A stretch of 64,000 bases of DNA from a virus (IMGVR_UViG_3300035675_000001); one strand, 5' to 3'; positions 1,071 through 61,389 are shown, numbered from the stretch's first letter. Numbers and translations: made by a program. Notes: generated by a model not told the origin, from the letters alone.

Positions 1071-1169
1071 ACACCAGGAAGAACGGCTTTCAGCGAGCTG
1101 GTTTGGGATGCAACTATTTTGTTTACATTTTCGATTGAGCGTGGGATATTGCCCTGGAAATCGTTCTGT

Positions 1170-1526
1170 ATGAAACTGAAACTGACCATACTTGCTGTGG
1201 GTTTGCTCGCCTCCGGGTGCGCGAACCAGTATTACACCGGGGCGTCCGGTCCAGGCCATGCCCAGCTCATGGAGAGCGGGCCGATGACTCTGGTCAACAA
1301 CACGCCCTGCCGCCTCAACGTCACCATCGACAGCGCCCTGGTTTACACCAACGTCGCTCCGGGCCAGACGGTTCCGATCCACGGCTCGGCCTGGGTGCCC
1401 AGGACGCCGGTGATTGTGACCGGCTACGACGACAAGGGCAAATACGTCGGGGCCAACGACTGGATATTCTACAACGGCCAGGCGCAGGTGTGGAGGGTCG
1501 AAGAACTCAAGAAGCCTACTTACTGA
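1170..1526 (+). CDS. Putative lipoprotein
   Basis: MKLKLTILAVGLLASG-C: signal peptide II with lipobox. Confidence 0.75.
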   Translation: MKLKLTILAVGLLASGCANQYYTGASGPGHAQLMESGPMTLVNNTPCRLNVTIDSALVYTNVAPGQTVPIHGSAWVPRTPVIVTGYDDKGKYVGANDWIFYNGQAQVWRVEELKKPTY

Positions 1527-1527
1527 T

Positions 1528-1938
1528 ATGCGAGTCCTTGTCGTTGACGAAGCCGCCAAAGCACGAGCCGCCGCGTTGCGGGAATACGTGCTGGCGCACA
1601 AAGAAAACCTGAACAGCCTGGTGGAGCGGATGAGCCGCAGAGGCCCGGTCCCCGGCGACAACCCCAACTTTGTCCTGGAGCTGTTCGACGGCTGGCGAGT
1701 CGTCATGACCCTGGAGCAGCAGCCGCCTCCCCCGGACGGACCAGGCTGGTGCTACCACATCTCGATCTCGGTCGCGCCCCGGCGCGGCGGGGGCGGCGGA
1801 GGCTACCCCAACCCCATCGCCATCGAGCACCAACTGCTGCCGCTCCTGGGCATCAAGGGCACCATCAAAGATGCCGTCAACAGCAAGACGGTCGGCAACG
1901 TCGTCGAGCTATGGTTCAAATACGAAGGCCCGGAATGA
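1528..1938 (+). CDS. Hypothetical protein
   Basis: 136 aa ORF tightly packed in the operon. Confidence 0.7.
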   Translation: MRVLVVDEAAKARAAALREYVLAHKENLNSLVERMSRRGPVPGDNPNFVLELFDGWRVVMTLEQQPPPPDGPGWCYHISISVAPRRGGGGGGYPNPIAIEHQLLPLLGIKGTIKDAVNSKTVGNVVELWFKYEGPE

Positions 1939-2192
1939 GCACCAAGACGTTTGTCGGCATCGGCATCGTCGGCCTGTTCGTCCTGTTCGTGCTGGAGCAT
2001 TACCAGCGAAAGCCCGCTGAGCCGGTCAAGGCTGTATCGACGAATACGACCTCGACCAACAACCCCTATCTCCAGGCCGCGCTGAGCAACGCCCTGATGC
2101 GCGTCCGGGCTGATCTCGCCAAGGAGACCAACGCCGCTGAGATCGCCAAACTCCGGGCTGCGGAGCACTCGATAACGAACACGCTGAAATGA
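1935..2192 (+). CDS. Small membrane-anchored protein
   Basis: ATGA overlap; N-terminal TM segment FVGIGIVGLFVLFVL. Confidence 0.65.
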   Translation: MSTKTFVGIGIVGLFVLFVLEHYQRKPAEPVKAVSTNTTSTNNPYLQAALSNALMRVRADLAKETNAAEIAKLRAAEHSITNTLK

Positions 2193-2440
2193 ATCTGCCC
2201 GACCTCATCGACATCACTGGACCCCAGGTGGTGGAAGTCCAGGTGAGCCACGACTGCCGCAAGCTGTGGATCAACGTCAACGGCAAGTGCGTGCTGCGCT
2301 GCTGCCAGATTGAAAACCTGGTGACCGAATCCCTCGACCAAAAACCTGTTCTATCTGAGGATGCGAATGCTGCCACAGGAAATACCGAAGACCATCCGCC
2401 AGGCAATGGCGATGGCCAACTACAAGAAAGCCGAGCCTGA
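2189..2440 (+). CDS. Hypothetical protein
   Basis: ATGA overlap with the previous gene; 3' end overlaps the next ORF. Confidence 0.5.
   Translation: MNLPDLIDITGPQVVEVQVSHDCRKLWINVNGKCVLRCCQIENLVTESLDQKPVLSEDANAATGNTEDHPPGNGDGQLQESRA
2348..2352 (+). promoter_or_regulatory. Class II upstream motif GTTCT
   Basis: GTTCT, 8 nt, then ATG2361. Confidence 0.45.
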
Positions 2441-5222: not shown

Positions 5223-5251
5223 TTGACGTGGGACTCGGTTTCGTTTACATT
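5223..5251 (+). promoter_or_regulatory. Class I sigma70-like promoter (early)
   Basis: TTGACG, 17 nt, TACATT, 10 nt, ATG5262; AT-rich UP-like tract upstream. Confidence 0.8.
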
Positions 5252-8058: not shown

Positions 8059-8087
8059 TTGACCTGGGACTTTGAATCGTTTACATT
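8059..8087 (+). promoter_or_regulatory. Class I sigma70-like promoter (leaderless geometry)
   Basis: TTGACC, 17 nt, TACATT, 7 nt, ATG8095. Confidence 0.8.
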
Positions 8088-8495: not shown

Positions 8496-9407
8496 ATGCC
8501 CAAAATCTGTTACCGGAAGAAGAACTTCTCGCCCGACCGCGTGGACAAGATCGAGAAGGCCAACGTCATCATCGCGGAGTATGCCGCCCAGGGATTCGAG
8601 CTGACCTTGCGCCAGCTCTACTACCAGTTCGTCTCGCGGGGGTTCATCCCCAACAACCAGCGCGAGTATAAGAACCTGGGCGATGTCATCAACGACGCCC
8701 GGCTGGCCGGTCAGATTGACTGGGAATCCATCGTGGACCGCACGCGCAACCTCTCCTCCCTGGCCCACTGGGACGCGCCCACCGACATCATCAGCGCGTG
8801 CGCCAAGCAGTTCCGCATCGACAAGTGGGCGACCCAGCCCCGGCGCGTGGAAGTCTGGATCGAGAAGGACGCCCTGGTCGGCGTCATCGAGGGCGTCTGC
8901 CAGTCCCTCGACGTGCCCTTCTTCTCCTGCCGTGGCTACACGTCGCAGTCCGAGATGTGGTCCGCCGCCATGCGCCTGCGGTCCTACTGGAAGAACAACG
9001 ACCAAGACCCGCTGGTGCTCCACTTCGGCGACCATGACCCTTCGGGCATCGACATGACCCGCGACATCCAGGACCGGCTCCAGGAGTTTGCGTTCGGCAC
9101 CGCTGGCCACAAGATCGAGCTTCGCCGCCTGGCGCTCAACATGCCCCAGGTCCAGCAATACAACCCGCCGCCCAACCCGGCCAAGATCACCGACAGCCGG
9201 GCCGAGGGCTACATCGCCGAGCACGGGGACGAGTCCTGGGAGCTGGACGCCCTGGAGCCGCAGGTCATCGCCGACCTGATCCGCAACGAAATCATGGGCG
9301 TGCGCGACGCGGACAAGTGGGACGCTGCCGTCGAGGAAGAAGACGAGCACAAGCGCCTGCTCTCCGCCGTATCCGACAAGTGGGACGAAATCACTCAAGA
9401 CCTATGA
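8496..9407 (+). CDS. TOPRIM-domain protein (Topo VI-A/DUF2399-like)
   Basis: LTLRQLYYQ (wHTH Tyr), VWIEKDAL, CRGY, FGDHDPSG, WELDAL. Confidence 0.8.
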   Translation: MPKICYRKKNFSPDRVDKIEKANVIIAEYAAQGFELTLRQLYYQFVSRGFIPNNQREYKNLGDVINDARLAGQIDWESIVDRTRNLSSLAHWDAPTDIISACAKQFRIDKWATQPRRVEVWIEKDALVGVIEGVCQSLDVPFFSCRGYTSQSEMWSAAMRLRSYWKNNDQDPLVLHFGDHDPSGIDMTRDIQDRLQEFAFGTAGHKIELRRLALNMPQVQQYNPPPNPAKITDSRAEGYIAEHGDESWELDALEPQVIADLIRNEIMGVRDADKWDAAVEEEDEHKRLLSAVSDKWDEITQDL

Positions 9408-11039: not shown

Positions 11040-11068
11040 TTGACAGCGAAGTCACCTTCGTTTACATT
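11040..11068 (+). promoter_or_regulatory. Class I sigma70-like promoter (leaderless geometry)
   Basis: TTGACA, 17 nt, TACATT, 7 nt, ATG11076. Confidence 0.8.
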
Positions 11069-13753: not shown

Positions 13754-14008
13754 ATGACCATGAACTCAACGAAGAAGGCCAGTGCTCACGATCCTCGCGT
13801 GTGGCCCAAACCCGGCGACCGCGTGGTCCGCGTCATCACCAACCGCAACGGCGTGCGCGGCGTCTTCCAGCGCATCGTGCTGGAAGTGGTCGGTGACCTC
13901 ATCATCTACACCCGCAAGCGCCGGGAGCGCCCGTGCAAAGCGCACCTGATCGACTGGCGCAAGTGGTGCAAAGAAGCCTCTGTCAACCTCACCCCCATTA
14001 CCTGGTAA
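13754..14008 (+). CDS. Hypothetical protein
   Basis: 84 aa ORF (PKPGDRVVRV...WRKW). Confidence 0.55.
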   Translation: MTMNSTKKASAHDPRVWPKPGDRVVRVITNRNGVRGVFQRIVLEVVGDLIIYTRKRRERPCKAHLIDWRKWCKEASVNLTPITW

Positions 14009-14029
14009 CCATCAACATAATTGTAAACA

Positions 14030-14245
14030 ATGGCAACTGAACAACTCCAAGATGTGGTGATCTACGAGATCGCCACGCGCAAGGTCGAATCCATCGCCGG
14101 GCGCGACATGAAGACCACCGGCAGCTTTCACACTGTGGACAAACGTCTCGCCACGGTGAGCGAACGCCTGAACGAGCACTACGACTGCATGGCCGTGCCC
14201 GCAGGCAAATACAACAAGGGAGACGTGTTACCCGACCAACCATGA
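14030..14245 (+). CDS. Hypothetical protein
   Basis: 71 aa; ATG overlaps a TTGTAAACAA site. Confidence 0.6.
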   Translation: MATEQLQDVVIYEIATRKVESIAGRDMKTTGSFHTVDKRLATVSERLNEHYDCMAVPAGKYNKGDVLPDQP

Positions 14246-18289: not shown

Positions 18290-21200
18290 TCAGCTCTTGA
18301 CGCGACCCGTCTCAACCAGGAACGCCCTGGCCTGGTCCGCATCAAATTGAATGTCATTCAGCTTGTAGCCTGACTCGGCCAGGCTCTTGATCTCCTGGTC
18401 GCTGGCCATGAGCAGCCAGCCCGTGGCGTCGAAGCCGCTCGTGGCCGCAACCGTGGGCAGCGCCTTGGTCTCCGCGACCACAATGCCCTCGTTCATGATC
18501 TGGCCGGAGAAGTGGCTCCAATCCAGGACGGCACCGCAGGCACCGCACTCCTGCATATCGAGGTCGTCGGCGTCGCCCGCCTCGATCCCGTTGAAGCCCG
18601 CCTTGAGGTAGCTGAAATCCGTCATCAGGTCGCCCTGGTGCCCACAGGCCGGGCAGCGCACGATGTGCCGGAGGTCGGGCGTCTTCTGGATGTAGATGAG
18701 GCGCAGCTCCGGGACCAGCTCCTTCCAGTCGGCCTCCTCGGACTCGGCAACTTTGTTTACAATTCTGACATCGTTGATCTGATCCCACGGCCACTCCGGG
18801 TGAATCTTCTCACCATAGGAGATGGCGTAATCCATCGGATCATCCAATGGGTAGTATTCTCCCGACAGTTGCTTGTTGAGCGCCTTCCAGTTGGGCCAGC
18901 GCCGGATCACGTCCCAAGGAATTTCCAAGGTCTCGATCCTGGGGCCGTGCTCGCGGGTGTCGTCATCGAACACGAACTGGACTACCGGCAGGATGTCCTG
19001 CGAAGTGGTCAAGTCCTTTCCTCCGATTTCGTCTTCGGCTGACTCTTGAACCTGGTCGGGCGGAATGAAGACTACATCCACCAACCAGTCCCAGTCATCC
19101 TTGTCCACGTCCCGGCGCGTGCGGCGAGCATAGTCGATCACCCTGTCCTGGACATCACCGCCCTCCTCGAAGCTGTTCTCCACTTCGGCCAGGCTGTTCA
19201 CTCCCAGCTCGCTGTAGGGCACCGTCAGCCAAACACTGTAGCCCCGCTCGCCTGCGCCGAAATCGAAACCCAAACGGAACTGCGGCGGCGGGTCGATATT
19301 CACCACGTCCTTGTGGCCGATGTCCTCCTCGCTCTCGTCCACGTCATGGCCATGAACATCGGCGATGGCCCCCTCGTTGTGGACCCGCACCCGGCGCATC
19401 AGCGACTCGATGGCCTCATTCTTCATGTCGTCGTAGTAGCCGCCCGGCTGCTTGAAGTCCTCGGCGCTGTGGTAGGAGCAACCGCCCAACCAGGCTTCGC
19501 CGCTGAACATCTTGCCGTTGGGCGCGGTCCACCGAGCAATAACGTGAGCGGAGCACCAGCCCCACTCGTTGCCGTTCTCGATCTGCTCGCGTGCCCAGGC
19601 CGCATCCTCCGGCATGGGGAAGTGATCCTCCGGCGTTTCGTCTTCCGGCTCAGCAACCAGGACGACCTCGATCTCCTCCGGCGTGGGCGGCTCGATGTAA
19701 TCGCTGGGCGGGGTGACCTGCTTCCAGTCGGCTTCGTCGTCTTCCTCTTTGAGCAGAGCCTCGACCACATCGTTCGGGTCGTAGTCGCCGTGGCCCAGGA
19801 CATAGCCAGGCTCCTCAACGTGCTCGACCTCGTAGTCGTGGTTCAGGTGGTGCCGCTTGAGGAAGTTGAAGCGGTCCTTCATGTCGAACTCCTCGACGTA
19901 AACCTCGTCCGCCTTGTTGAACAAACTCGACGTGTAGGCAAAGTTCAACGCCTTCTCCAGCGTGGGCATGACGTTGGTGTGATACCACTGGTCGTCATCA
20001 GGCTGGAGACCATGCCAGTTCACTCGGAACCAGATGCGTTGCTCATCCGCCACGTCCTTCCAGTCAGGGTCTTCCTCGCTCTCCTGGTGGTAAGCGCCCG
20101 GAGAGTCCAGGCTGTTGACAACCCGCAGCACTTCCACCGAAGGGTTCTTGGCCGAGAAGATCGCCGCCGCTTCCTCCGCATTGCGAGCGTGGACGCCGTA
20201 ATGGCCCTGACCCACCGTGGACTTGTAATAGACGATGAACAGGTTGGGCTTGCCAGAGTGCGCGGCATCCTTCCAATCCAGGTCATCCTCAGACTCGCGC
20301 ACCGGCCCCCACACATTCTCCGGCCAGTCGGCATTGCCGCCAGCAGCCCTGATCTTTCGGATCAGCTCCTCCGTGAACCGCTTCGGGTTGGTGTAGGTGT
20401 CGTGGTAGATCGGGAAATATCCCTCCTGACCACGGCGCTGATACACGACCAGGTGCCACTGACGCTCGCGCACCGTATCCTCGTCGATCAGAGGCTCGGT
20501 GTGCTCGACGGTCATCATGATGTTGGCCTCCGGCTTCACATCATCGCGCCAGGTGAGCATGTGCCACTTGTCGTCCATGCGGAAGCCCAGGCCCGCCATC
20601 CACTCCAGCAGGCTGTCATCGGAAGCCACGTCCTTCCAATCAGGATCGTCCTCGCTCTCATTGGCGATGGGCGTGAGCTTGAACACGAACTCGTGGTCCG
20701 CGCTGCCGCCAGGTATCATCTGGACCGCTACCTGGTTCTTGAAGGCATACTCCGCCGCGAACGTCACGGCTTTCAACGCCTGCTCATCCTTCACGCTCTG
20801 CTCCAGGTTCGGCTCATTGAACTCGCCGTTGAAGCGCACGTCCCAGGTCCGGTCGGTCGCGTCCGGCTCAGACAAGCCGATGTCCAGCCAACCGAAGGTC
20901 TCCAGGGAACTGATGAACGCCTGCGGGTCATACTGCTTGGCGCGACCGCCTGCCACGCGCTCGTCCCCATTGCTCAGGACCGTTTCCTTCCAGTCAGCCT
21001 CATCGCTCTCCTCCAGGCCGTTCTCGTTCGGCTCGTTCGGATTGCGGTAGGTATCCACAATCTTCCAGCCAGAGTTGTTGTCGAGCGGAACCTCGCGGAT
21101 CAGGCTGCCGTCCGGGTTCACGAGCACGATGGCCTCGGTGCCGAACGGACAATCGTTCAGGTCGATGACGCCCTCGTTGATGAAGTCGCCCAGCTTGAAG

Positions 21201-24200
21201 ACCGTAGCCTGGTCGAACTCCTCTATCCAATCTCCTACTTCATCGGAGAAGTAATGCTTCACATACGGAGTGCCTGGCCGATCCATCAGGGTGAACGGGC
21301 ACATGAACTTCACCCACTCGCTCTCGCCCAGGACCAGCTCTTTCCACGAACCCTCGTCGTCCAGGCTCTCGTGCCAGGAATAGACCGGCTTCATGCTGGT
21401 GATGTGGCGTGCGCGGGTGTCCGGCCAGCGGAAGTTCTCGAACCTGGCGCGGGCTTCTTCCTCGCTCGCTGCGGTCAGCGTGATCTCGAACGGCATCCAC
21501 TTGCGGCCACTGCGGGACACGTAGTTGACCTTGAATCCAACCGGCACAGCCAGCCCGGCATCCTTCATGTCGAAGTCATCCTCGGACTCTTTGACCAGGA
21601 AGCTGCGAGCCTGGCTGCCATCAAAGGGCCGGTAGGTCACGAAGCTTGCGTCGTCCTCCAGGTCCAGACCTTGGACCTCCTCCGGCTTCACGCCCGCCAG
21701 CTTGGGCAGGTGTTCAACTCCGGCCTGGAGCGTGTCCATGTGAATGATGCCGTCGTAGCCCTGGGCCTTGGCGGCTTCGACGTAAGCGGGATTGTCAACA
21801 ATCGCATACGTGTCGATCTCCACGCCGTCGAGCAGATACTCCAGAATCTCCATGCGCCTGCTCTCGATGGCCGCTGGGTCTTCCTCCATCTCGGCCAGGT
21901 CGTCGATGGCGTCCTGGAGGTCTCCCCAATCGCTGATGCAGGTGATGTCGTTGGCCGAGCAGGTGAAGTCCACCGAGTATTCCAGCTTGGTCAGGTGATA
22001 CTGGTAGTTGCCGATCAGCTCGCTCAGGTCATCCCACGAGAAGGTGTTGTTGGCGGGCGCATTGCTAAAGTCCCAGCGCAGGCGCTCGATGGCTTGCCAG
22101 AGCGTGGTCTGCGTCCCCAGGTCGCGCAGGTCCAGCGGCTTCTTCATGCTCAGGCGATACTTGCCCACGTTCGCGCCGGGCCGGAACTCCGGCTGGCCAA
22201 ACAGCTCGTCCCTGGTCGCCGCGAACACGCTGGCGATGTGCGGGCTGGTCGTAAAGCTGGGCGTGCTGCGGCCCTGGCGGGTAACGAACTTGCCCGGCTT
22301 GGGCACCTTCTTCATCCCCCGATAGACCGGCAGCGGATTGCCCTCCGGGTCCGTGATGTCGCCCTCGGCCTCGGCCAGAGCTTCCTCGGTCTGCTCCGGC
22401 TCGTTCTTGAAATCCATGATGGTGTTGTCCTGGTCATCCTTGAGCCGAAGCTTGTCGGTCTGACACTTGGCCATCATCCATTCCCACTGAGCGCCGGTGG
22501 GCGTGCCGCCGTCGATCAACATGCTGTCGCCGGGCTGGATCGCCACGCGCATGTAGCCCCGCGCATACATGGCCCGATAGACCTTGCCCTGCATCGTCCA
22601 ATACTCGCGCTCCACAGCGGAGGGCGGCATGGTGATGCCCAGCTTCCTGGCCGCGTAGTCCAGGTGGTTCGCACCCGCATACTCCGGCTGGCCGTTGCGC
22701 GTGAGCCAGATGTTGACGTGGCCGGTGACCTCCTGGATCACAGACTCACCCAGGCCACGACCGCCATAATACCACCAGTCGTAAACCTGCTGCTGCCAGT
22801 CTTCGTATTGGTCCGGGTCTTCGGGCGGCTCGCCAAACTGCTCGATGGCCCGCGCCATCATTTCCTGCTCGTCCTCATCGCGCTTGGCATACTCCGCGTC
22901 GCGCCACTGCTCATACTCTTTGCGCCACTGCTCGCGTTCAGCTTCCCTGGCCGGACGCCCGCGCTCCCACTCCTCCTCGTCTTTCTTGCGCTGCTGCGGG
23001 GACCGGTAACGCTTCCAGGCATCCAGGGCGTAGCTCAAGGATTTCTCCTTGTCGCCGCGTGGATTGTAAAGCGAGGCCCGGCCTGCTCGCGCCCGGAGAG
23101 TGTCGAGGCGCTGGGCCAGAGCTGGGTTCTTGGCTGCCGCGTGCGGGCACAGCCAGGTTTTGCACGCCAGCGGCTTGTCAGCCTTGCAGCCCTGGGGCGA
23201 CCAATGCTCGCAGCCCTTGCAGCAGAGGGTGTCCATATCGACACCGCCGCCATACTTGGCCTGAGCCAGTGGGTCAGAGTAGATGCCCTCGCGGCTCCCC
23301 AGGCAGGTGACATGGCCCGTCTTGGTGTCGATCTGACAGGGCTTGTGTTTGGCCAGCGCACCGGCTGCCTGGCCATAGAGCTTATTGTAAACTTTTTCCA
23401 ACCGCTCGCGGTCAACGGGCTTGGCCTCCTGGATGGCCACGCGCAGGATGGACTCCAGCATCTCCGGCTCCATCTCCGAGTCGCCCAGGTCCACGGTGAT
23501 CTCCACCAGGTCGTGGTTGTGAATCCAGACCTTGGCGTTCTCAGGCAGCGCATTCTGGATCAGCGTGCGCCAGCCGCCGTAGTAGTCGCCCGCCTCGGCC
23601 CCAGGGTAGGGGATGACCGTGTAGATCGAGAGCTGGTCGTGGCCGGTGGTCGGGTTGCGCTTACGCGAGTCGTAGGCATAGACGTGCTGCTTGTCGATCT
23701 GCACCGGGTGCGCGAGGTCCGGCCACGCGGTCGTGCGGGTAGCCAGGTCGCCTTTGACGTAAAACTTGAAGCCCGCTCGCTTGAGCTGATCCATGACCTC
23801 CAACGCGGCCACGCGGTCCAGCTCGCCCAGGTGCGGGCGGACCAGCTCCTTCCAATCCTCGCTGTCCTCCGGCTCCTCCAACGACTCCATCTCGCCGTAA
23901 ACAATTCCGCGCAAAAGCTTCTGGTAGGGCATCCAGTCGATGGCTGCCATCTTCTTGGAATACTTGTCCTCGCATTTGCCCTCCTCCTCGCCGGGCACCA
24001 ACTCGCGGCACTGCTTGGGCCGCTGCTCGTAGCCAAGCTGGCAGCCGCCCGGTCCCTTGAGTTCGCACCGCTCATACTCGCCGCTGCCGGTCATGAAGCT
24101 GCGCCGGGCGCGGGGCCGGACCATCATCACGTCCTCCTCGGCATCCGGGTTCTGGCCGGTGGGGTCGCCATACCAGGAGTCGATCTCGTAGCGGTCGCTG

Positions 24201-28797: not shown

Positions 28798-28840
28798 GCA
28801 AGACTTTGTTTACAATTTCAATGTGGCACAAGAAAGAAAT

Positions 28841-34017: not shown

Positions 34018-34022
34018 AGAAC
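34018..34022 (-). promoter_or_regulatory. Class II motif GTTCT with tandem TGTTTACA sites upstream
   Basis: CGTTCT, 9 nt, ATG34008; TTGTTTACA at 34034 and 34048. Confidence 0.55.
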
Positions 34023-34094
34023 GTAAATGGAAATTGTTTACAAGTTTTTGTTTACAGCCTCCCTGCTCCCGTCAAGAGTATATCGCCGAATGCG

Positions 34095-35798: not shown

Positions 35799-38700
35799 TG
35801 GGGATGGTGGTAAACGAAAGGCTTGAGCATCCGATGCCAGCGGTTGACAAAGCTGCGCTCTGCCTCGTGGCCGCGCTCTTTGCTCTTGAGGATGTTTACA
35901 ATCTCTGTCCGGTAAAAGTTGGTGATGGCGTCTTTCAGCTCTTGCAGCCGGTTGAAGTCGAAGTTGAAGGACTTCCAGTGGGCGCTCTTACCGATCCGGC
36001 TGTGGGGCGGAACCTCGACCACCAGGTAAGCTGTCGTGCTCAGCCACTTGATGTGGTAGTCCGGGTCTTCCTCGCTGCTCATGGACATGATCTGAACGGT
36101 CACGGAGCCGCTGTAACCGTGCTCGGCGTTCTTGGCCTCCATCCGGTAAATCCGGTCAGGGTGCTCATCATGAAGTCCGCGCCACTTCTCCTCGGTCCAG
36201 ATGAAGTGCTCCGGCGATACCGCGTCCTTCCAGTCGATGTCATCCTCCGCCGCCTCATACACCCGCTTGAAAGCAGGCTGCTGCTCGGCCCAGGCCAAAC
36301 CCTTCTCAACCGCCGCGTTCCAGTCCGGGATGCCGGGCACGACCAGGGCGTCGATCATCTGCCGGTGAAGGTTCTTGCCCGCCACGCCGGTCTCCTTCCA
36401 GAGCGTGAACTGGAACCTCTGCTCCCGGTTCTGGCCATACTTGTCCACCAGGTTGCCAATGTCCAGGGCGAGACCGCCAGGGTGAACGAACTTCTTCTGG
36501 ACGACCATGTTGGCCTTGGGGTCATTCAGGAATTGGTAGTGGTGGGCTGTGAAAGCATGGCCCTCGCCTGCGCCCTCCCAACCACTGTCGCCCGTCACTT
36601 CCTTCCAGCCAATGTCCTCGTCGGACTCCTCAACCCAATGGTCCCGGACCTCGCGGAAGTAGGGGCTGCGGTTGGCCCAGTCGATAGCGCCCTTCAAGGC
36701 ACCGTCCATGTTCAAAGCCGCGATCTCCTGGCGCTCCTTCACGTCCAGGTGGTGTTTCAGCTCGACCGAATAGATGTGGTGCCCGGTCCCCGGATTGATC
36801 GGGTTATCGACCGTGGTGCGATACTGGAGCAGCAGGCGGAATCCCGTCTCCGGGTGCTTGGCCATCGCCATCGAGTGGCCCTGCGGCCCGATCATCCAGC
36901 CGTCCAGCTCCCCCACGGCGTCCTTCCAGTCAACCTCGTCCTCACCCTCCTGGGTAGGCAGCAGCTTCATCTTGCGGGCGATTTCCCGGACCAGCTTGTC
37001 ATTGTCCAGGCCCAGGGGCGGCAGGTCATCCAGCGGAACCCACTTGACCTTCTCGGCATCGTCGCCCGCCGTGGCCCTTTCGCCGTCCGGCAGAGTCGTG
37101 CCGTAAACGGTGACCTGCTTCTTGCCGGTCTCATTGGGCATGTCCTTGATGTAAACGAGGCGACCCAGGTCGAGCTTGGTCTCCTCCTTCATCTCCCGGT
37201 GCGCGGCATCTTCGATGGACTCGCCTTCATTCGCGTGCCCACCTGGGATCACCCACTCTCCCTCAGCCGGGGGATACTCGCGCTTGCAGACCAGGCACTC
37301 GAATCCCTTGTCACTCCGCTTGCGGAAAACGGCCACGATGGCGACGCGGCTCTTGTCGTCGCCCTCCTCACTGTTCTCGATCAGGTCTTCCCCGTGGACA
37401 TCCGGGATGCCTGTCATCCGGCTGGCCTCCTCGCGGGTGACGAACTCTCCACGCCTGGTCAGGAAGCCGATCTCCACCTGCTCCCAAATCCGGTTGTAGG
37501 CGTCGTTGTCCACTTCGCCCAGGGCTTCCAGGTCAGCCAGGCTTTTGACCTTGCCGAACATGCCTTGCTGGAGGAATCGCTCCATCGCTTCGGAGTGCGT
37601 GGACCCTGTGGCGACCTGGCGGGTGCGTTTGTGCAGCACAGCAGGCTCGACAAGCGGCCTATTTGTCGCCTCATGCACAATGTCTTGCGGGCTTGTCAGC
37701 GTGCTGAACCTACCTGTTTTTGGATCGTAACTTGTCACACTCTTGTCAACTGCAAGTGCTTCTGCCAGAGCATCCAAGGACTTGTTAGCATACCACTCAC
37801 CTTTGACAGATACAAAACCTTGTTGCTCAGACTCTTGCACGCTACGCAGCGTTCCGCCTTGTTCGAGCAAGCGATTGACAAGACCAGCCTGACAAGACTC
37901 GACTTTGCCCCAGCCGTCGATGCTCAAGATGTGCTTTGGAACGATCAGATTGAAGGTGTCCACCCCGGCAGGCACCGCCCTGATCGACTTCATCTGCTTG
38001 TCATTCAGACCCAGCTTGCGGATAGCGTCTTTGACAAGAAGCATGTCCTGGAGCAACCAGCCCGGCCAGTGAACATGGAACGCCTTGCTATGGCCCGACC
38101 AGGGGAACAAGAATGTGCTCTGCGCCCCGGCTCCCATGATGGCAGCTTCGATGTCGTTTCGCTTGAGCTTGAATGGACCCGCGACATCTTTCCAGGTCGC
38201 GCCCTCGTCGTCTTCAACTGCCTCCGCAACTTGGCTCTCCTCGATGCCACGGTGGTAGAAGTTCAGCTCGATCCTGCCCAGGTCTTTCCGATAGTCCCAG
38301 CTCACCCAGTCCGGGCGGATGCCCACGTCTTCGATCACTTGCGCTGCGATTTGCAGCGCGTCCACATCCTCCTGGTTGGGCACCCACATCCCACGGAAGG
38401 TCATCCAATCCCCCTCCCAAAAGTTGGTGACGCCGGTCAGACCGTTGTTTGCCATCGCTTGCTCAACTTCTTGCAGAGTTGGCTTGCGGGCCGGAACTAC
38501 GTCCTTCCAGTCAGCTTCCTCGTCACTCTCGATGATGTCGCCGCCGCCAATCCCCAGGATGTCCGTGGACAGGGTGCCGGTGCCGGGGTGGTAGAAGAAG
38601 TCACGGCTGTCGCTCCTGCCGCCGCCCAGGTAGTCGAGGGCCAGCTCGTCGATCTCGCGCTTCATCTGCTCCGGGTCCAGACCCTTGGCAGCAAAGCCGT

Positions 38701-41011: not shown

Positions 41012-41505
41012 GTCGCAGCTTTTTTCAAGATAGCCGTGGTGCTCACATTGGGCACCGGGCGGACCAGCCGGATGACGCAGTTCATCCCCAAGGCAGCTTC
41101 CCGCTCGCCCGCGTCCAGGGTCTCCATCGTGTAGTCACCGCCCTTCACCCAAACGTGGGGCCGGGCGTGTTGCAAGAAACTGGTCGCCCGCAGGTCATCG
41201 AAAATGTAAACAATATCCACCGCTTCGAGGGCAGCGATCACTGCGGCCCGGTCGTGCTGGCTGTTGACCGGGCGCGTCGGACCCTTCAACTGCCGAACCG
41301 ACGCATCGCTGTTGACCCCGACAACCACGAACTCGCCTTCCATCCGCGCCTGCTCCAGCAGGTAGATGTGGCCCGGATGAAGGATGTCGAAGCAGCCGTT
41401 GGTCGCAACCACGCGGCAGGCTTTGGGCAGCATGGCCCGCCAGGCGATCAAACCTGCCAGGTCCATGATCTTCTCCTCGGCGGAGCTGTAGTAGTCAGTG
41501 TCCAT
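41008..41505 (-). CDS. Cytidylyltransferase-family nucleotidyltransferase, RfaE/HldE domain II-like (ADP-heptose synthesis)
   Basis: ATNGCFDILHPGH, VVGVNSDASVRQLKGPTRPVN, VKGGDY, STT. Confidence 0.88.
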   Translation of the reverse strand: MDTDYYSSAEEKIMDLAGLIAWRAMLPKACRVVATNGCFDILHPGHIYLLEQARMEGEFVVVGVNSDASVRQLKGPTRPVNSQHDRAAVIAALEAVDIVYIFDDLRATSFLQHARPHVWVKGGDYTMETLDAGEREAALGMNCVIRLVRPVPNVSTTAILKKAAT

Positions 41506-42034
41506 GCTGTTTAAGAACCTGGAGCCAGTAGGTCACGTCCTCCGGCGTCATGGTGTCGTAGATGGTGGTGTGGCCCTCGTGCGGTTCCTCCAGGGATTCG
41601 ACCCAGGCTTTGAAGTGCGGGTCGCGGGCCAGGGCGCTCTCGAACGCCTGGTAGAGCTGGCCGACCTGGGTCCGGCGCTCGTGCTCCTTCACGAACGGAA
41701 CGGCCACGCGCATGGCTGCCGCCCGCAGGGACTTGGGCGACAACATTCCGGCCCAACCGCTTTCCCTGGTGAACTCGCGTGGCCAAGGCTCGATGTGGGG
41801 GCCACGGATGCGAAGCAGATAACGAGCGCCGGTGCGGTGCTCCAGGGTGACCGTGTATTCGCCAATCTGCCGGACCCAATCCCGGCCTTCTTCTGGCATT
41901 TCCTCCATGAAGGCGTGAACAATCTGGCTGGCAAGTCCCTCTGCCGAAGTGTCCTGATAGACCTCTTTGAAATCAATATCGTCCTCCTCCGCTTCGAGAA
42001 GGCCGTTCAAGATCAATTCGGTTTCGCTTCGCAC
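41495..42034 (-). CDS. Single-module protein carrying the polyprotein linker at its N-terminus
   Basis: MRSETELILNGLLE-AEEDDIDFKEV. Confidence 0.75.
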   Translation of the reverse strand: MRSETELILNGLLEAEEDDIDFKEVYQDTSAEGLASQIVHAFMEEMPEEGRDWVRQIGEYTVTLEHRTGARYLLRIRGPHIEPWPREFTRESGWAGMLSPKSLRAAAMRVAVPFVKEHERRTQVGQLYQAFESALARDPHFKAWVESLEEPHEGHTTIYDTMTPEDVTYWLQVLKQHGH

Positions 42035-42693
42035 GCCTTAACTACCCCCGGAACTTTGTGGGGGTGGGTTATGGCCCAGGGCGTCAGGTCGGCGGGCAGC
42101 CAATCGTGTTTACAGAGGGAGATGATCTCGGCGTGGTTGCCCCAGGACATGCCGCACGCCCGGAGGCCCCACATGATGATCCGATCCGTGGACAAATACC
42201 CCTTCCACTCCGCCCAGTCGTAGTCGTAGTCCCTCTTGAACGCCCAGGTCTTCCAGTCGGTCAGGGCCGGAAAGGTGAACACCTTGCTGTCGTAGAGCTT
42301 TTGCGCGGATGTGCGCCAAAAAGCCTGGCAGCCGCCCTGGATGTGCTCCTGGACCTCGCCTTTGCCCAGCAGGCTGCCGAAGCAGTCCACATCCGGGATG
42401 TAGCTCAACTTGCGGCTGATCCTGGCATCGGGGTCAAACTTGAAGATGATGTCGCCGGTCTCGCGCAGCGCCTCCTCGAAGAAGCTGTGCCACCAGTTCC
42501 CGCCCTCCGGCTGGACCTTGAGCGGCTTGGGCCGCTGGACAAACTTGGCGGGCACTGCTGCCAGATCAGTGCGGGGCTGATCCGCAACGATAACGACGGA
42601 CCCACCAGGGTAAGCCTTCCAGATCAGGTCAACGCAGAAGGTGATAAGGTCAAGGCTCTCCGAAGCAACAGTTACCACGAAAATCGGTTTCAC
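42013..42693 (-). CDS. Putative glycosyltransferase-like (GT-A, DxD) protein
   Basis: IFVVTV...VVIVAD...IIFKFDPDARI...GGCQAF. Confidence 0.55.
   Translation of the reverse strand: MKPIFVVTVASESLDLITFCVDLIWKAYPGGSVVIVADQPRTDLAAVPAKFVQRPKPLKVQPEGGNWWHSFFEEALRETGDIIFKFDPDARISRKLSYIPDVDCFGSLLGKGEVQEHIQGGCQAFWRTSAQKLYDSKVFTFPALTDWKTWAFKRDYDYDWAEWKGYLSTDRIIMWGLRACGMSWGNHAEIISLCKHDWLPADLTPWAITHPHKVPGVVKACEAKPN
42039..42044 (-). promoter_or_regulatory. Class III motif TAGTTA
   Basis: TAGTTA-AGGC-GTG42034. Confidence 0.7.
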
Positions 42694-43589: not shown

Positions 43590-43619
43590 ATAATATCGTT
43601 TACAATTTCTTTTCGTCAA
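43590..43619 (-). promoter_or_regulatory. Sigma70-like promoter with TGTAAAC in the spacer
   Basis: TTGACG, 18 nt, TATTAT, 9 nt, ATG43580. Confidence 0.6.
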
Positions 43620-43684: not shown

Positions 43685-44068
43685 CTACCCCGCAGCCGTA
43701 ACCGTTTGGCTTTGTTCAGCATCCACTATGATGTGGACGGCTGCGAATAACTTTTTCGACACCCGGCCCACCCGCCACGGCTGCACGTCCACCTGGAGGC
43801 GCTTGTAGAGCCTGGGATGCGTTTTGTCCGCAACCATCTTGATCCAGGTGCGAATCTGGCGCTCCGACATTTTGTAAGCCCCGCCGCCCGGCATGGGCTT
43901 CTCATAAACGGCCAGGTCCAGCTCATAGCGGTGGTTACGCCGCCGAGCTGTCGCATTGCCGAAAACCCCGCCGAGCTGTCTCTGGAAAAAGGCAACGACC
44001 CGGCGCAGCCGGGTCGCGTCACTGATCTCTCGCTCGGTCAGAGCTGTAAAGTAGCGTCGCACGCTCAC
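43685..44068 (-). CDS. Hypothetical protein
   Basis: 127 aa behind a TAGATA motif. Confidence 0.55.
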   Translation of the reverse strand: MSVRRYFTALTEREISDATRLRRVVAFFQRQLGGVFGNATARRRNHRYELDLAVYEKPMPGGGAYKMSERQIRTWIKMVADKTHPRLYKRLQVDVQPWRVGRVSKKLFAAVHIIVDAEQSQTVTAAG

Positions 44069-44631
44069 GTCTTATCTACGGGGGTTACCAGCGCGGAGCG
44101 GTCGATGCCGCGCACCCAGTAGAAGGGGTCGATCACCTGGCCGTCCTCCTGGTCGCGCACCGCGCCCTTGTGGGGGGAGTCATAACGCAAAACTGTAAAC
44201 AATCTCTTGTTCCAGCGAATCACGTCCCCTGGTTCAAATCCACGGCTGCGGACCTTCACCTGTCGGCCCTTCCAAAAATCCACGATCTGCTTCACGCGCT
44301 GCTTGGACAGGGGCACCAGAGTCTCCTTACCGTTAACGACTATCCGGCGCGGGTTGCGGCGTCCCACATCCTCCAGGGTAATGCCCGGCTCCGTCGCGTC
44401 GCGCAGAATCTTCATGGTCCGAGCGTCAGGCACCTGGAGCTTGCGCCCGCCGTGGGGTCGGCCCTGGCACTTGGCAATCCTGGCCAGGTTGTTGACGGTC
44501 GAGAGGCTGACCTCGTGCTTCTTGGCGATCTCCGCAAGGCTGTAGCGGAAGTCACCGTTGGGCAGCTTCTCCTTGTAGTCCTCGATGATTTGCACCTGGA
44601 CCTTACCGCTGATGTATCTGATTCGTTTCAT
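44065..44631 (-). CDS. HTH DNA-binding protein (two HTH-like segments, one sigma70 region 4-like)
   Basis: YSLAEIAKKHEVSLSTV; ITLEDVG...SKQRVKQI. Confidence 0.6.
   Translation of the reverse strand: MKRIRYISGKVQVQIIEDYKEKLPNGDFRYSLAEIAKKHEVSLSTVNNLARIAKCQGRPHGGRKLQVPDARTMKILRDATEPGITLEDVGRRNPRRIVVNGKETLVPLSKQRVKQIVDFWKGRQVKVRSRGFEPGDVIRWNKRLFTVLRYDSPHKGAVRDQEDGQVIDPFYWVRGIDRSALVTPVDKT
44073..44078 (-). promoter_or_regulatory. Class III motif variant TAGATA
   Basis: TAGATA-AGAC-GTG44068. Confidence 0.55.
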
Positions 44632-44681: not shown

Positions 44682-45389
44682 CTACTTCTCCTCGCCTTCG
44701 GCTGCCTTGGGGCAAGGAACAAAATTGGTCTGGTTCTTGACGACCTCGCTGATCTTCTGGTTGGTCTCCAGGTCGAAGTCCATCCAGCGCCGGTTGTGGA
44801 AGTCCGGGAGGGGCTGGACCGACTCGCTGGTCGAGAGGGGGTTCGGGACACCCAGCTCCTTACTGACCGCCTCCAGGGCTGCGAAAATCTTGTCGTAACG
44901 CTTCTGGTCGAACCGACCATCGGCACCCAGGAACACGGTGCTGTCGAACGTGCCGACCATCGTGCGGATCAAGTAGTCGTTGATGTCGGGCTTCCTGCCC
45001 GCCTTGGTGCGGATTTCACCAAACAGGGCCTCGGCCATCGCGGGAGCCACGGCGCTGTATTTGCTCGTGAAGGTGACGCGGGTCACTTCCTCGGCGTCGT
45101 CCTGGAGCTTCACGCTGGAGATCGCGTCCCAGGGGCGCTCGCTGTTGTGCCGGAACAGTTCGGCCAAGGCGTCGGGCAGCATGACCGGCTTGAGGTCTTT
45201 CATCAGCTCCTCGGCCTCCTTCATGACCGCAGCCGCCTCGTTGTAGCGCGTGGGGTAGTCGCCCTCGACGATGATGGTGGGGATGTCGCCCTTCTTCACA
45301 GCCTTCTGGATGGACTTGACCTTGATGGGAGCGAGGACGTTCTTGGGGGTGCCGTTTTTCTTCGTAGTTTTGGTAGCCATATCTTTCAT
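44682..45389 (-). CDS. Hypothetical protein
   Basis: 235 aa with strong codon bias. Confidence 0.7.
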   Translation of the reverse strand: MKDMATKTTKKNGTPKNVLAPIKVKSIQKAVKKGDIPTIIVEGDYPTRYNEAAAVMKEAEELMKDLKPVMLPDALAELFRHNSERPWDAISSVKLQDDAEEVTRVTFTSKYSAVAPAMAEALFGEIRTKAGRKPDINDYLIRTMVGTFDSTVFLGADGRFDQKRYDKIFAALEAVSKELGVPNPLSTSESVQPLPDFHNRRWMDFDLETNQKISEVVKNQTNFVPCPKAAEGEEK

Positions 45390-45415: not shown

Positions 45416-45444
45416 AACGTAAACTATCTTGAGTTCGGTGTCAA
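45416..45444 (-). promoter_or_regulatory. Class I sigma70-like promoter
   Basis: TTGACA, 17 nt, TACGTT (GTTTACG junction). Confidence 0.7.
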
Positions 45445-46298: not shown

Positions 46299-46327
46299 AA
46301 TGTAAACGAAACCCCGTTCGCCGTCAA
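46299..46327 (-). promoter_or_regulatory. Class I sigma70-like promoter, close copy of the 5.2 kb promoter
   Basis: TTGACG, 17 nt, TACATT, 10 nt, ATG46288. Confidence 0.8.
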
Positions 46328-58633: not shown

Positions 58634-58639
58634 TAACTA
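58634..58639 (-). promoter_or_regulatory. Class III motif TAGTTA
   Basis: TAGTTA-TGGC-GTG58629. Confidence 0.7.
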
Positions 58640-59509
58640 CGTCTTGGCTTCCAGGACGGACTGCTCCAACCGATCAAATTCCGCCTGCTGGTCTTTGGTG
58701 ATCCACCGGTCTGTGTCCAAGGGCCTCTCCTGTTCAATGGCAATCTTGTCGATGTGCCTGATGAAGAATCCCAGGTCGCGCTTGGCTTTGATCTGGTAGA
58801 ACATCGGGTCGTTGTCATCCGGCTGGTCAACTCCGTCCACATTCATCCACATCCGGTAAGCGTAGGCGACCAGCTCGTTCCCACCGATGTCCTGGGTCCG
58901 GCAGACTTCCTCCACCCGCTCCTGGTATCCGCGCTTCATCATGAAGGGCAGTCCGAAGCGAGCTTGGAATCCCTTGCTCCACTTGTTCAGGAATCTTTGA
59001 GCGTGTTGGAAAGCCGTCTTCTCCGCCGAAGGCGCAACACCACCAGCACCACTCTGACCGGAACCACTGCCCGCGCCAGCGGCAGTGGTTTTGGTCTTTG
59101 GTGATTGTTTAAGACTGGGGAATCTTAGTGCCCGGCTGTCCGGGGCCGGTAATCCGGGCATGGTGAGACCTTTTTTGACCGGCCCACCCATGCCCGGTAA
59201 ACCGGGCATAGAAGGCACAATTAAAGTGTAAACATTTCCCTTCCAGACACCACCAAGCCGCTCTTTTTCAACGAACAGAAACCCCTTCTTCTGGAGTTCA
59301 TACTGGTAGGTTTGCAAGGTTGACCTGGCGCAGCCCATGTTCGATTTCAGGGTATCCTGACTTGGAAAAGGCTGCGGACTATCGGGGCTGGCATAGCTCT
59401 GGAGTATGCCCCACAGCACCCGCGCACCAAATGACAGCTCTGCGTTCCTCAAAACGCTCTTAGCGGGAATGGAGCTGTGCCACTCCGCGCCGTATTTCAA
59501 CATACTCAT
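58637..59509 (-). CDS. HTH replication-initiator-like protein
   Basis: LRNAELSFGARVLWGIL...FPSQDTL..NMGCARSTL...ELQKKGF. Confidence 0.65.
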   Translation of the reverse strand: MSMLKYGAEWHSSIPAKSVLRNAELSFGARVLWGILQSYASPDSPQPFPSQDTLKSNMGCARSTLQTYQYELQKKGFLFVEKERLGGVWKGNVYTLIVPSMPGLPGMGGPVKKGLTMPGLPAPDSRALRFPSLKQSPKTKTTAAGAGSGSGQSGAGGVAPSAEKTAFQHAQRFLNKWSKGFQARFGLPFMMKRGYQERVEEVCRTQDIGGNELVAYAYRMWMNVDGVDQPDDNDPMFYQIKAKRDLGFFIRHIDKIAIEQERPLDTDRWITKDQQAEFDRLEQSVLEAKT

Positions 59510-59518
59510 TCGACCAGT

Positions 59519-59523
59519 AGAAC
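59519..59523 (-). promoter_or_regulatory. Class II upstream motif GTTCT
   Basis: GTAAAC, 11 nt, CGTTCTAC; 9 nt to ATG59509. Confidence 0.5.
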
Positions 59524-59544
59524 GGGGTCGAAAGCGTTTACCTT

Positions 59545-61350
59545 TTAGTCAAGACGTTTGAACTCTTTCGCACGTCCGATGCTGTCGGGTCCGAGGCAGG
59601 GATGATAGAAAGTGTAGCCGCGAATGTCGTGGAGCTTGTTGAAGACGCGCTTGGAGCCGCGCCGGAGGGCCGGGTGCTGGACATCAATAAAGGCCGTGAT
59701 GAACGCTTCGTTGTCGCCCTGCTTCTTGCGGATGAACCGCCCGATGATCTGGTTCATGACCTCGGCGTCCCCGATGTAGTCGGCGATCACGCCGCCGCGA
59801 ATCTCGTTGATCGAGACGCCCTCTTTGACCAGCGGGCTGATGAGCACGCCGCCAGGGTGGGACCGGAACCAAGCGAACGCCTGGTCGCGTTCCTTGGGGG
59901 TATGCTCGCTGAACAGCACCTTCACGTTGTCCTGGCCGATGGCGTTGCCAATCATGGTTTCCAGGACCAGGACGTGCATAGTCCGGGTGCAAACCACCAG
60001 GGTCGGAAAGTTGCGCTCCTGGCTGTAGTGCTTGGCCCAGGCCACGATCAACTCGTTGCGCTCCTTGAAGCTGATGATGGACTTGTCGATGGTCCGATCC
60101 AGCAAGCAGTAGCGCGAGTCCACGTTGTAGGTGGTCGAGGAGCCGTCGAACTGGATGACGTGGAAGCCGTCCACGGTGACCGGCTTCTCGACCTCGATCC
60201 ACTTGGCCTTCTTCTGCGTGTCCACGTCCCCGTTGCTGGTATAGACCTCATTCTCCTCCACGCCCTCCAGCTCGCGGACCTTCCGCATCTTGATCTGGCC
60301 GCTCTCATCGCGCTCATAAACCGGGCCGACGTAGGTGCCATGCTTCCATTCGCTGCCGACCAGCGCCCAGGCCGGGGTGTCCGGGTCAGCCTGGTGCGGG
60401 ACGCTCTTGAAGCGGTTGTGCCAATCCCCGTTTTGAACCAAGTAGATGGTGGGCTTGGCTGAGCGCCCGATGTCGATGTAGGTGCTGACCGGGACCACGT
60501 AGCGGATCGGCCCCAGGAGGCCCTGAATCTTGTTGGCCAGGGCCGGGTCGCTGTCGCGCTTGGAGTCAGAAGCGCCCAGCCGAAAGAAGGCTGGAATTTG
60601 CATCATGATCTTGCTGCTCGTGGGAGCGCAGACGTGATGACTCTCGTCGTAGAGGACGGCGATGAAGTTGTTGAACCACTTTTCGGCGATCAACTCTTGA
60701 CGGTGTGCCCACAGCATAGCCACGGTGCAGATCACCATGTCCTTGCCGGTCTTGTCGTTCTTGCTGCCGCCGAACTGGGTGATGTGGAAGCCGGGCATGA
60801 ACGCCTTGATGTCCTTGTAAGCCTGGCGGACCAGGCGCTCGCTCTGCGTGATGTAAAGGATGCGGGCGTCGCTAAACTTGGCGATAATCATGCCCGCTGC
60901 TGCCGCGAACATGGCCGTCTTGCCGCCGTTGACGGCGATCTTGTTGACGCCCATCCCGTGGGAGAGCCAGAAGGCCACGCTCTCGCGCTGGTATTCGTCC
61001 AGGTCGAAGTCAGAGGCCAGGAGGTCCACGGGGATGTCGTCGGAGGTAATGGAGGCGAAGGGCGACTTGAGACACTGGCTGGTGTCCACCTGGTAGCCCA
61101 GCTTTTGGGCCAGCTCGATGATGGTGTCCCGGTGCCCGCGCAGGCAGTTGGCCCGCTCGTCGTTGGAGAAGGTGATAGGGCAGACGTAGCCGTCCCACCC
61201 GTCCTGGCCATCGGTCAGGACGTAGGCTTTGTAGGAGGGGGCGTGCTCGAAACCCTTGGGACGAAAGCGCAGCTTACTGGCCAGGTTGCTCAGCTCCGAG
61301 CTGTCGCCAACCAGCTTGATGTGTGTTGGACCTTCAATGACACGAATCAC
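59545..61350 (-). CDS. uvsW: SF2 DNA helicase, T4 UvsW-like
   Basis: RFRPKGF...WDGY, EYQRESV, AVNGGKT, DESHH, KEGVSI, QIIGRFIR. Confidence 0.8.
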   Translation of the reverse strand: MIRVIEGPTHIKLVGDSSELSNLASKLRFRPKGFEHAPSYKAYVLTDGQDGWDGYVCPITFSNDERANCLRGHRDTIIELAQKLGYQVDTSQCLKSPFASITSDDIPVDLLASDFDLDEYQRESVAFWLSHGMGVNKIAVNGGKTAMFAAAAGMIIAKFSDARILYITQSERLVRQAYKDIKAFMPGFHITQFGGSKNDKTGKDMVICTVAMLWAHRQELIAEKWFNNFIAVLYDESHHVCAPTSSKIMMQIPAFFRLGASDSKRDSDPALANKIQGLLGPIRYVVPVSTYIDIGRSAKPTIYLVQNGDWHNRFKSVPHQADPDTPAWALVGSEWKHGTYVGPVYERDESGQIKMRKVRELEGVEENEVYTSNGDVDTQKKAKWIEVEKPVTVDGFHVIQFDGSSTTYNVDSRYCLLDRTIDKSIISFKERNELIVAWAKHYSQERNFPTLVVCTRTMHVLVLETMIGNAIGQDNVKVLFSEHTPKERDQAFAWFRSHPGGVLISPLVKEGVSINEIRGGVIADYIGDAEVMNQIIGRFIRKKQGDNEAFITAFIDVQHPALRRGSKRVFNKLHDIRGYTFYHPCLGPDSIGRAKEFKRLD

Positions 61351-61389
61351 ACCAGCAGTATCCAGCCTTGCTGGAAAATGTAAACAAAA

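Follow-up and report, generated by a model that had tools for sequence, protein, structure and literature searches.

Why should a phage carry one short, near-palindromic word over and over, inside its genes as well as between them, and what might read it? The question is raised by a 64,000-nucleotide stretch of the viral record IMGVR_UViG_3300035675_000001 (hereafter the window; it is the minus strand of bases 18555-82554 of an IMG/VR record of 109,625 bp), in which TGTWWACA occurs 16 times, as TGTAAACA or as its opposite-strand form TGTTTACA. We propose that the word serves as an operator, with many additional orphan sites, for a symmetric DNA-binding regulator; we consider this the best explanation of the data, tentatively and at somewhat less than even chances.

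A word in large excess

A first-pass annotation of the window had listed 16 copies with a rough expectation of under one. All 16 coordinates are exact, TGTWWACA is found nowhere else in the window, and dinucleotide shuffles give a mean of 0.66 copies and a maximum of 3. The centres of the window copies are TT and AA only, never AT or TA. In the full record (G+C 60%, estimated completeness 62%) there are 34 copies where about 1 is expected, and the word is the top over-represented 8-mer. Gene calls made anew from codon statistics place 21-22 of the 34 inside open reading frames (ORFs), and the intergenic copies are over-represented about 5-fold. The annotation had proposed a codon-shuffled null, and when synonymous codons were permuted within each gene the intragenic count of 21 stood far above the shuffled value (0.97 +/- 0.90, maximum 4).

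The intragenic copies share a codon setting. The reading frame is xxT GTA AAC Axx (Val-Asn) or xxT GTT TAC Axx (Val-Tyr) in 18 of 21, and GTA is the rarest valine codon of the record (97 of 2498). The rare-codon islands described in the first-pass annotation are real, because the use of GTA is concentrated before AAC: AAC follows 20 of the 97 GTA codons, and the full word is present at 15 of these 20. The window copies are the following (strand in brackets is that of the gene).

1120-1127: copy, TGTTTACA on the + strand, between the divergent small genes 816-1070 (-) and 1269-1526 (+), then TTTACA-N17-GATATT
14022-14029: intergenic copy, TGTAAACA on the + strand, adjoining the in-frame ATG at 14030 of the gene called at 14054-14245 (+)
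18754-18761: orphan copy in the 2151-amino-acid ORF 18290-24745 (-), sense ATT GTA AAC AAA (I-V-N-K)
25571-25578: orphan copy in gene 25359-25742 (-), I-V-N-K; the ortholog in relative G002 reads GIVTR and lacks the word
27445-27452: orphan copy in gene 27095-27784 (-), F-V-N-N; the G002 ortholog has CGTAAACA at the same place
28807-28814: intergenic copy, 9 nt upstream of the ATG of gene 28102-28797 (-)
31626-31633: intergenic copy between genes 31029-31508 (-) and 31779-32069 (-)
34035-34056: tandem pair, 14 bp apart, 40 and 26 nt upstream of the ATG at 34008 of gene 33313-34008 (-)
35893-35900: orphan copy in the 3'-end region of the 1738-amino-acid ORF 35795-41011 (-), E-I-V-N-I
40747-40754: orphan copy in the 5'-end region of ORF 35795-41011 (-), D-F-V-N-K, kept at the aligned position of G002
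41205-41212: orphan copy in gene 41008-41505 (-), D-I-V-Y-I
42107-42114: orphan copy in gene 42013-42693 (-), in the rare frame TGT AAA CAC
44194-44201: orphan copy in the double helix-turn-helix (HTH) gene 44065-44631 (-), frame xTG TTT ACA
59227-59234: copy in the long ORF 58637-59509 (-), frame xxT GTT TAC Axx
61379-61386: copy, sense TGTTTACA, 28 nt upstream of the helicase GTG start (61350), in -35 geometry, TTTACA-N18-TACTGC-N4-GTG

Our own gene caller shortens ORF 58637-59509, and the copy at 59227 would then be intergenic. The place upstream of the helicase is also occupied by the word in the related loci L005, L006, L007 (a double copy) and L029. Among the small genes that flank intergenic copies (816-1070, 1269-1526, 13754-14008 and others) no Pfam family was found.

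The phage and its relatives

An alignment search of IMG/VR with the helicase gave 33 related loci, and eight records were taken whole; below, G000 is this phage's own record, and the other G numbers (G001-G008 and so on) and the L-numbered loci are related IMG/VR records. A locus search with a single protein as query retrieved no relatives. Nor did a DNA-level search find any among cultured phages, whose closest protein matches are Bacillus phage helicases only 24% identical. Closest are G001 (helicase identity 76%) and G002 (68%; 238 kb); G006, G007 and G008 (222-230 kb) are more distant, at 40-46%. The source looks to be an uncultured, T4-like jumbo phage with a chromosome of roughly 220 kb and no sign of lysogeny. 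Window and public record differ at a single base (29257, A versus G).

The excess is shared across this group. Relatives carry 41-115 copies, and of TGTAAACA itself there are 13 copies in G001 and 51 in G002. Codon shuffling again leaves the intragenic counts unexplained (G004, 97 versus 18.3; G002, 23 versus 5.3; G005, 32 versus 8.6). A restriction target was rejected as an explanation: it would require avoidance, but the word is enriched 14- to 40-fold, and words truly avoided in the same genome count 0. Literature on the word together with phage gave nothing relevant, and literature matches to TTGTATACAA were mostly cloning att sites.

Shape of the motif and its forced centre

The word belongs to an 8-bp dyad motif shared across the clade, YGTA-D-ACR. 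In the substitution table G2, T3, A6 and C7 are strict, whereas position 1 accepts Y, position 8 accepts R and one letter of the centre may vary; the enriched variants alter the outer letters (CGTAAACA, 10 versus 2.9 expected; TGTAAACG, 14 versus 3.1). The flanks of the 34 aligned copies form a weak 18-bp dyad, GAAwTTGT-AA-ACAAt.TC. Two earlier statements about the shape need amendment. That most copies extend to TTGT-WW-ACAA was overstated, the full 10-mer being present in 7 of 16 and one side only in six more. The variant TTGTCAACAA does occur at 21792 as described, but its class is not enriched (TGTCAACA, 6 versus about 3 expected), so that copy is probably due to chance.

The central letter is restricted by word avoidance. 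GTAC, GTATAC, GTAGAC and GTCGAC are entirely absent from each of G000-G002; other palindromes at zero in this phage's record are GCGCGC, CGCGCG, GCCGGC, GGCGCC, CCGCGG, CGGCCG, GGGCCC, CCCGGG, GCATGC and TGCGCA, and GAGCCC/CCCGAG is likewise missing (about 100-330 occurrences expected for purged words). Since other centres would create such purged words (GTAC, GTATAC, GTAGAC), the A/T-only centre of G000-G002 is what remains once they are forbidden. G001 and G002 purge the same sites as G000, and only TGTAAACA is used. G003 and G004 have no such purging and use TGTATACA, TGTAAACA and TGTAGACA side by side (in G004 there are 40, 41 and 34 copies, respectively, against 2-7 expected); TGTACACA is used in neither. 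G005 uses TGTAGACA (38 copies), and G010 is rich in CGTAAACG. The purging also raises the core hexamer in general, since Val-Tyr is barred from GTC-TAC and GTG-TAC (neither is ever used; GTT-TAC is, 49 times): GTTTAC occurs 111 times against 16 expected. Given those 111, T..A flanks would be expected around about 4, and 34 are seen.

Two further observations concern word usage in these genomes. CTAG has 8-16 occurrences, and CCWGG is over-represented 2.7-fold in the record. In the word-poor loci L016, L017, L025 and L027 (46% G+C) the top over-represented word is the 8-bp palindrome TGACGTCA, at 4 sites per roughly 20 kb, which may be a different word of the same kind of system.

Selection on number more than on place

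The arrangement of the copies is close to random. Their spacing is Poisson-like (coefficient of variation about 1, one copy every 1.3-5 kb), and their position within genes is uniform, with no bias. Orientation relative to the gene is 23:11 (sense:antisense) in G000, the opposite way round in G002 and roughly balanced in G004 and G005, and the orphan copies of G004 and G005 show no flanking signal within 45 bp on each side. A test by expression class found no enrichment, with a weak hint of depletion in early operons. Conservation in relatives, which the first-pass annotation had named as a check, gives a divided answer. At aligned positions the word is shared by 3 of 12 G000 copies and by 3 of 8 G002 copies (62% nucleotide identity in aligned blocks), which is above the 4.2% background conservation of same-frame 8-mers (P = 0.012 and P = 0.0036, respectively), but copies turn over fast and most positions are not kept. 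Some losses relative to G002 are purely synonymous at a conserved Val-Asn (ATT GTA AAC ATT versus ATC GTG AAC ATC). Given the excess over the codon null, the random spacing and a turnover that includes synonymous-only differences, selection thus acts on the DNA itself, and on the number of copies more than on their place.

There is one departure from Poisson spacing: across the relatives, word pairs 13-15 bp apart, direct or inverted, are commoner than it predicts. Examples are the following.

G005: 139343/139358
G006: 89583/89596
G008: 181050/181064
G013: 37575/37588 and 48922/48935
G015: 23131/23144
L007: upstream of the helicase

An element of the Chi or uptake-sequence type is excluded by the symmetry of the motif and by the lack of a consistent strand pattern in G000-G005. 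The strand bias of the copies in G006-G008 follows gene direction because copies there are promoters.

A link to early promoters

The connection of the word with promoters is a new result, absent from the first-pass annotation. The -35 box published for T4-type early promoters is GTTTAC (PMC1524935). In G006-G008 about 75% of the copies are intergenic, 36-50 of 45-57 copies have TGTTTACA on the sense strand, and TAnnnT follows 16-18 bp downstream in 27/41, 33/38 and 16/43 copies of G006, G007 and G008, respectively. The cassette there consists of an A-rich tract, TGTTTACA, N16, TG-n-TATAGT, N6 and ATG, with 28-32 nt from the end of the word to the start codon, and nearly all leaderless promoters of these phages have exact TGTTTACA as their -35 box. 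The cassettes are sigma70-type promoters for leaderless messages.

In the lineage of the window the word meets promoters at a different point. Early promoters here have the form TTGACN-N17-TACATT-N7-10-ATG, and it is the -10 that is overlapped by a variant of the word, CGTTTACA, in promoters of both G000 and G002. The promoter family as a whole is (c)acttcCCTcTTGACN-N17-TACATT, with the same cassette in G002; with only 7-10 nt between the end of the -10 and the ATG, little or no leader would be left on the early messages. At six promoters of the window a variant of the word lies on or beside the -10.

5223-5251 (+): sigma70-type leaderless promoter TTGACG-N17-TACATT, 10 nt before the ATG; CGTTTACA at 5242-5249 overlaps the -10
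8059-8087 (+): promoter of the same type; CGTTTACA at 8078-8085 overlaps the -10
11040-11068 (+): promoter of the same type; CGTTTACA at 11059-11066 overlaps the -10
46299-46327 (-): promoter of the same type; a variant at 46301-46308 (TGTAAACG on the + strand) overlaps the -10
43590-43619 (-): promoter TTGACG-N18-TATTAT; TGTAAACG (43597-43604, read on the - strand) lies in the spacer, adjoining the -10
45416-45444 (-): promoter TTGACA-N17-TACGTT, upstream of genes 44682-45389 and 44065-44631; AGTTTACG lies over the -10

In G004 the -10 region is TGTATACAGT in about 10 promoters, and TGTATACA lies over the -10 there. Intergenic copies in G000-G005 cluster 24-30 nt and 2-10 nt before start codons; the former cluster holds 8 of the 23 sense-oriented intergenic copies, and most copies are not at a fixed distance. 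A minority of copies thus coincides with core elements, the -35 or the -10, of sigma70-type leaderless early promoters. As a class, the copies in this lineage are not canonical promoters themselves: TAnnnT stands 16-18 bp downstream in 0/34 copies of G000, 0/13 of G001 and 1/51 of G002, and a canonical sigma70 promoter reading of the G000 copies is ruled out by its absence.

Other start-site elements do not account for the word either. A promoter of the CGTTCT type was rejected, only 2-4 copies per genome lying 10-12 nt upstream of GTTCT, and the late element TAGTTA never stands beside the word. The start-adjacent element (c)CGTTCT(a/t) is itself found 7-12 nt before about 20 gene starts (for example at window positions 34018-34023 and 1165-1170), and one stands 11-12 nt downstream of the proximal copy of the 34035-34056 pair. 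It differs from TAGTTA/GTAGTTA, which precedes about 10 other starts; both elements are kept in G002, G004 and G005. The CGTTCT element may represent a further class of promoter or have a role in translation.

A symmetric regulator as the proposed reader

The strict symmetric 8-mer, the selection for number, the indifference to orientation and the positions at -35 and -10 together argue for a reader of double-stranded DNA that is itself symmetric. We suggest that a two-fold symmetric (or bipartite) sequence-specific protein would bind the word on double-stranded DNA, its predicted target being the TTGTAAACAA duplex with specificity resting on the GT and AC letters. At early promoters overlapped by the word, on the -35 or the -10, the protein would occlude RNA polymerase. 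The orphan copies in ORFs would offer the protein further places to dock, where it could block elongating RNA polymerase, or would form a reservoir or a scaffold; in the latter two roles they may keep the protein spread along the roughly 220-kb chromosome. The logic would be that of an operator plus stoperators, with one protein acting genome-wide. The first-pass annotation had proposed a dimeric phage protein as the reader. A symmetric reader fits (strict symmetric 8-mer, dyad flanks, mixed orientation), but the roles offered for it (roadblock, genome organiser, packaging site or methylation target) cannot be separated. Our best structural guess is a winged-helix-type dimer, of phage or host, since the half-site, (T)TGTA, agrees with GntR/FadR operators of the GTA-TAC class.

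A more specific history can be sketched, although we regard it as doubtful. A symmetric phage regulator may have taken over the ancestral early-promoter box GTTTAC and gained 50-150 extra copies in ORFs by way of rare codons, giving an operator-and-roadblock grid whose centre letter is set by host-forced purging of restriction sites.

Which protein might be the reader? An HU/IHF-fold protein and a double-HTH protein are candidates only. The first, L109:15149-15493 (+), has 114 amino acids and lies just outside the window (window coordinate 67062-67406), in a gene that adjoins baseplate genes. Its predicted fold is HU/IHF (DNABII), with a predicted local distance difference test score (pLDDT) of 85 and top PDB matches that are all HU or IHF (1exe among them), and its arm-tip proline is conserved. 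The second is the product of gene 44065-44631 (-), which was already suggested as a reader in the first-pass annotation. It is indeed a double-HTH protein (188 amino acids, two HTH units, an SH3/KOW-like C-terminal domain and a weak Sigma70_r4 match), its gene lies downstream of an early promoter, and its presence in G002-G004 and absence from G006-G008 is a pattern that would fit a reader; over all records, however, its presence does not track the word cleanly. Paired-domain, Tc3 and KOW-like folds were the only matches in a fold search, all of them weak, and homologs are called 'transposase-like' by one source. The other HTH protein put forward earlier, that of ORF 58637-59509 (-), does contain an HTH, in the form of a replication-initiator-like HTH_36 N-terminus. 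The topoisomerase (8496-9407) was ruled out as a reader because it is absent from G004, G005 and G007.

Several points weigh against the regulator hypothesis. First, the role of the reader is one that we infer, with candidates only to fill it. The HU/IHF-fold protein is present in all 14 relatives searched, word-rich or word-poor (G009, G012 and G014 are word-poor), and DNABII proteins, which bind through the minor groove, rarely depend on a strict 8-mer. The double-HTH protein is missing from several word-rich partial records and present in the word-poor G014. The GntR domain PF00392 was not found in G000, G002, G004, G005 or G008, in a search that matched it in all 14 control genomes. Second, the promoter evidence is uneven: the early promoters of G005 lack the word, those of G000 carry the weaker CGTTTACA rather than the perfect word, and the link may reflect shared ancestry, not shared function, if host sigma70 reads the word in G006-G008. 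Third, we know of no need for a stoperator-type repressor in a lytic jumbo phage.

Two other genes of the window can be mentioned here. Window 61390-62667 (-) encodes a family-9 glycosyltransferase (heptosyltransferase-like) and window 41008-41505 (-) a heptose-1-phosphate adenylyltransferase-like protein; these heptose genes may serve to add heptose to some phage or host target.

Other explanations

The main rival to a symmetric regulator is the host RNA polymerase holoenzyme, for which the word would be a T4-type early -35 box, able to double as a -10 (TACAAT/TACATT). On this view the orphan copies would be half-promoters, at which sigma70-RNA polymerase is captured or pauses, or else weak promoters of internal or antisense transcription. 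The identity of GTTTAC with the T4-like box, the exact TGTTTACA at the -35 of nearly every leaderless promoter in G006-G008, the same geometry at the copy upstream of the helicase in G000, L005-L007 and L029, and the TACATT or TACAGT that forms the -10 of G000, G002 and G004 promoters in or beside the word are all what this explanation would predict. It fits G006-G008 but not the orphan copies of this phage. TAnnnT at the proper spacing is seen in 0/34 copies of G000 and 1/51 of G002, and orphan copies show no conserved T that would complete a -10 hexamer. The palindromic and G-centre forms contain TATACA and TAGACA, which make poor -35 boxes, but are enriched just as much as the A-centre form, and the symmetric tolerance and mixed orientation are unlike the behaviour of a monomeric sigma domain. 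Overall we consider it unlikely that RNA polymerase is the reader.

The copies could instead be architectural sites, at which an abundant nucleoid-type protein of the phage (for example the HU/IHF-fold dimer found throughout the clade) would bind or bend the DNA, and so help to compact, organise or package the roughly 220-kb chromosome while playing no direct part in transcription. Random position, even density (every 1.3-5 kb) and uniform placement within genes would all suit such a protein, as would the occurrence in 14/14 relatives searched of the 114-amino-acid DNABII-fold protein with its conserved arm-tip proline; SPO1 TF1 is a precedent of a phage DNABII protein with preferred sites. 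That the same protein occurs in the word-poor G009, G012 and G014, that known DNABII sites are unlike a strict contiguous 8-mer, and that the -35 and -10 positions of intergenic copies would be left unexplained make this explanation distinctly unlikely.

It is improbable, further, that the word is the target of a phage DNA enzyme, be it a site-specific nickase or endonuclease (as in T5-like or tf-like nicks), a recombination or replication-priming function or a modification enzyme. A contiguous 8-bp palindrome with a degenerate centre is typical of dimeric nuclease or methyltransferase sites, and the density is near one per Okazaki-fragment length. A modification target, however, need not be enriched, and methylation alone would not explain the excess; known phage nick sites are asymmetric and on one strand only; no enzyme is linked to the word, and the promoter-core positions would again go unexplained.

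Finally, that the word has no function and is a by-product of restriction-site purging and codon-pair constraints (Val-Tyr forced to GTT-TAC), as the missing GTC-TAC and GTG-TAC, the raised GTTTAC and the purged GTATAC and GTAGAC might suggest, is so improbable as to be set aside: the T..A flanks are in excess even given 111 GTTTAC, 15 of the 20 GTA-AAC pairs carry the full word though GTC-AAC is free, intergenic copies are over-represented too, and G003 and G004 purge none of these sites yet are even richer, the codon-shuffle result for G004 contradicting this explanation.

Comparison with known systems

The closest functional analogy for an operator with many orphan sites is provided by the stoperators of Cluster A phages, read by a repressor of the L5 gp71 type; these are 13-14 bp long, asymmetric and in one orientation relative to transcription, with some copies in promoters and most not promoter-associated, whether inside genes or in the gaps separating them (PMC6550527). 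Here, too, tens of copies of one short word are spread across a phage genome (34 in 109.6 kb), few are in promoters and most elsewhere (21/34 in ORFs), and the consensus is lineage-specific and drifts among relatives. Cluster A phages, however, are temperate and have a known immunity repressor, whereas the present site is an 8-bp dyad without consistent orientation, mostly in ORFs, in T4-like jumbo phages with candidate readers only. The shortness, symmetry and lack of orientation of the site, together with the apparently lytic, T4-like nature of the phage, set the system apart from the Cluster A stoperator kind, of which it is not a member.

With the T4-type early -35 box (PMC1524935) the word shares its core hexamer and, in G006-G008 and before the helicase, a position 16-18 bp upstream of a -10-like hexamer. 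It differs in that no copy of this phage has a spaced TAnnnT (0/34), most are intragenic and in either orientation, and sister phages use palindromic (TGTATACA) or G-centre forms that make poor -35 boxes. The third comparison is with the GTA-TAC operators of GntR/FadR regulators, such as ATACTTGTATACAAGTAT of Bacillus subtilis GntR and ATGTATACAT of Atu1419 (PMC11472048). The core (T)TGTA|TACA(A) is identical, with invariant GT and AC and an A/T-rich centre, and is read there by a winged-helix homodimer. Those operators, however, occur singly, ahead of catabolic operons, whereas a phage genome of the present group has 50-150 copies, and no GntR domain is detectable in five phage genomes. SPO1 TF1 resembles one of the candidates in being a phage-encoded DNABII-fold dimer with sites tied to early promoters. 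Its site preference is a matter of hydroxymethyluracil in the DNA and of flexibility rather than of a strict 8-mer, and in this it differs from what is seen here.

Implications

To the original observation of a scattered word, the present analysis adds codon-aware and conservation statistics, the YGTA-D-ACR substitution table, the split between orphan-rich and promoter-only lineages, the correspondences with the T4 -35 box and the GntR/FadR operators, and tests of three candidate readers. Two selective forces meet on one site, restriction avoidance setting the centre letter and function setting the rest. The promoter box GTTTAC and the dispersed intragenic word share their sequence in sister lineages, which makes the origin of 'stoperator'-like systems testable by comparison. 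If one protein does read the word, a widespread group of uncultured phages of about 220 kb would have in it a global regulator or organiser, with a binding map readable straight from sequence; for phages beyond the reach of culture, such access to gene control is rare. If, in particular, the copies act as operators and roadblocks, stoperator-like global control would extend beyond the temperate actinophages.

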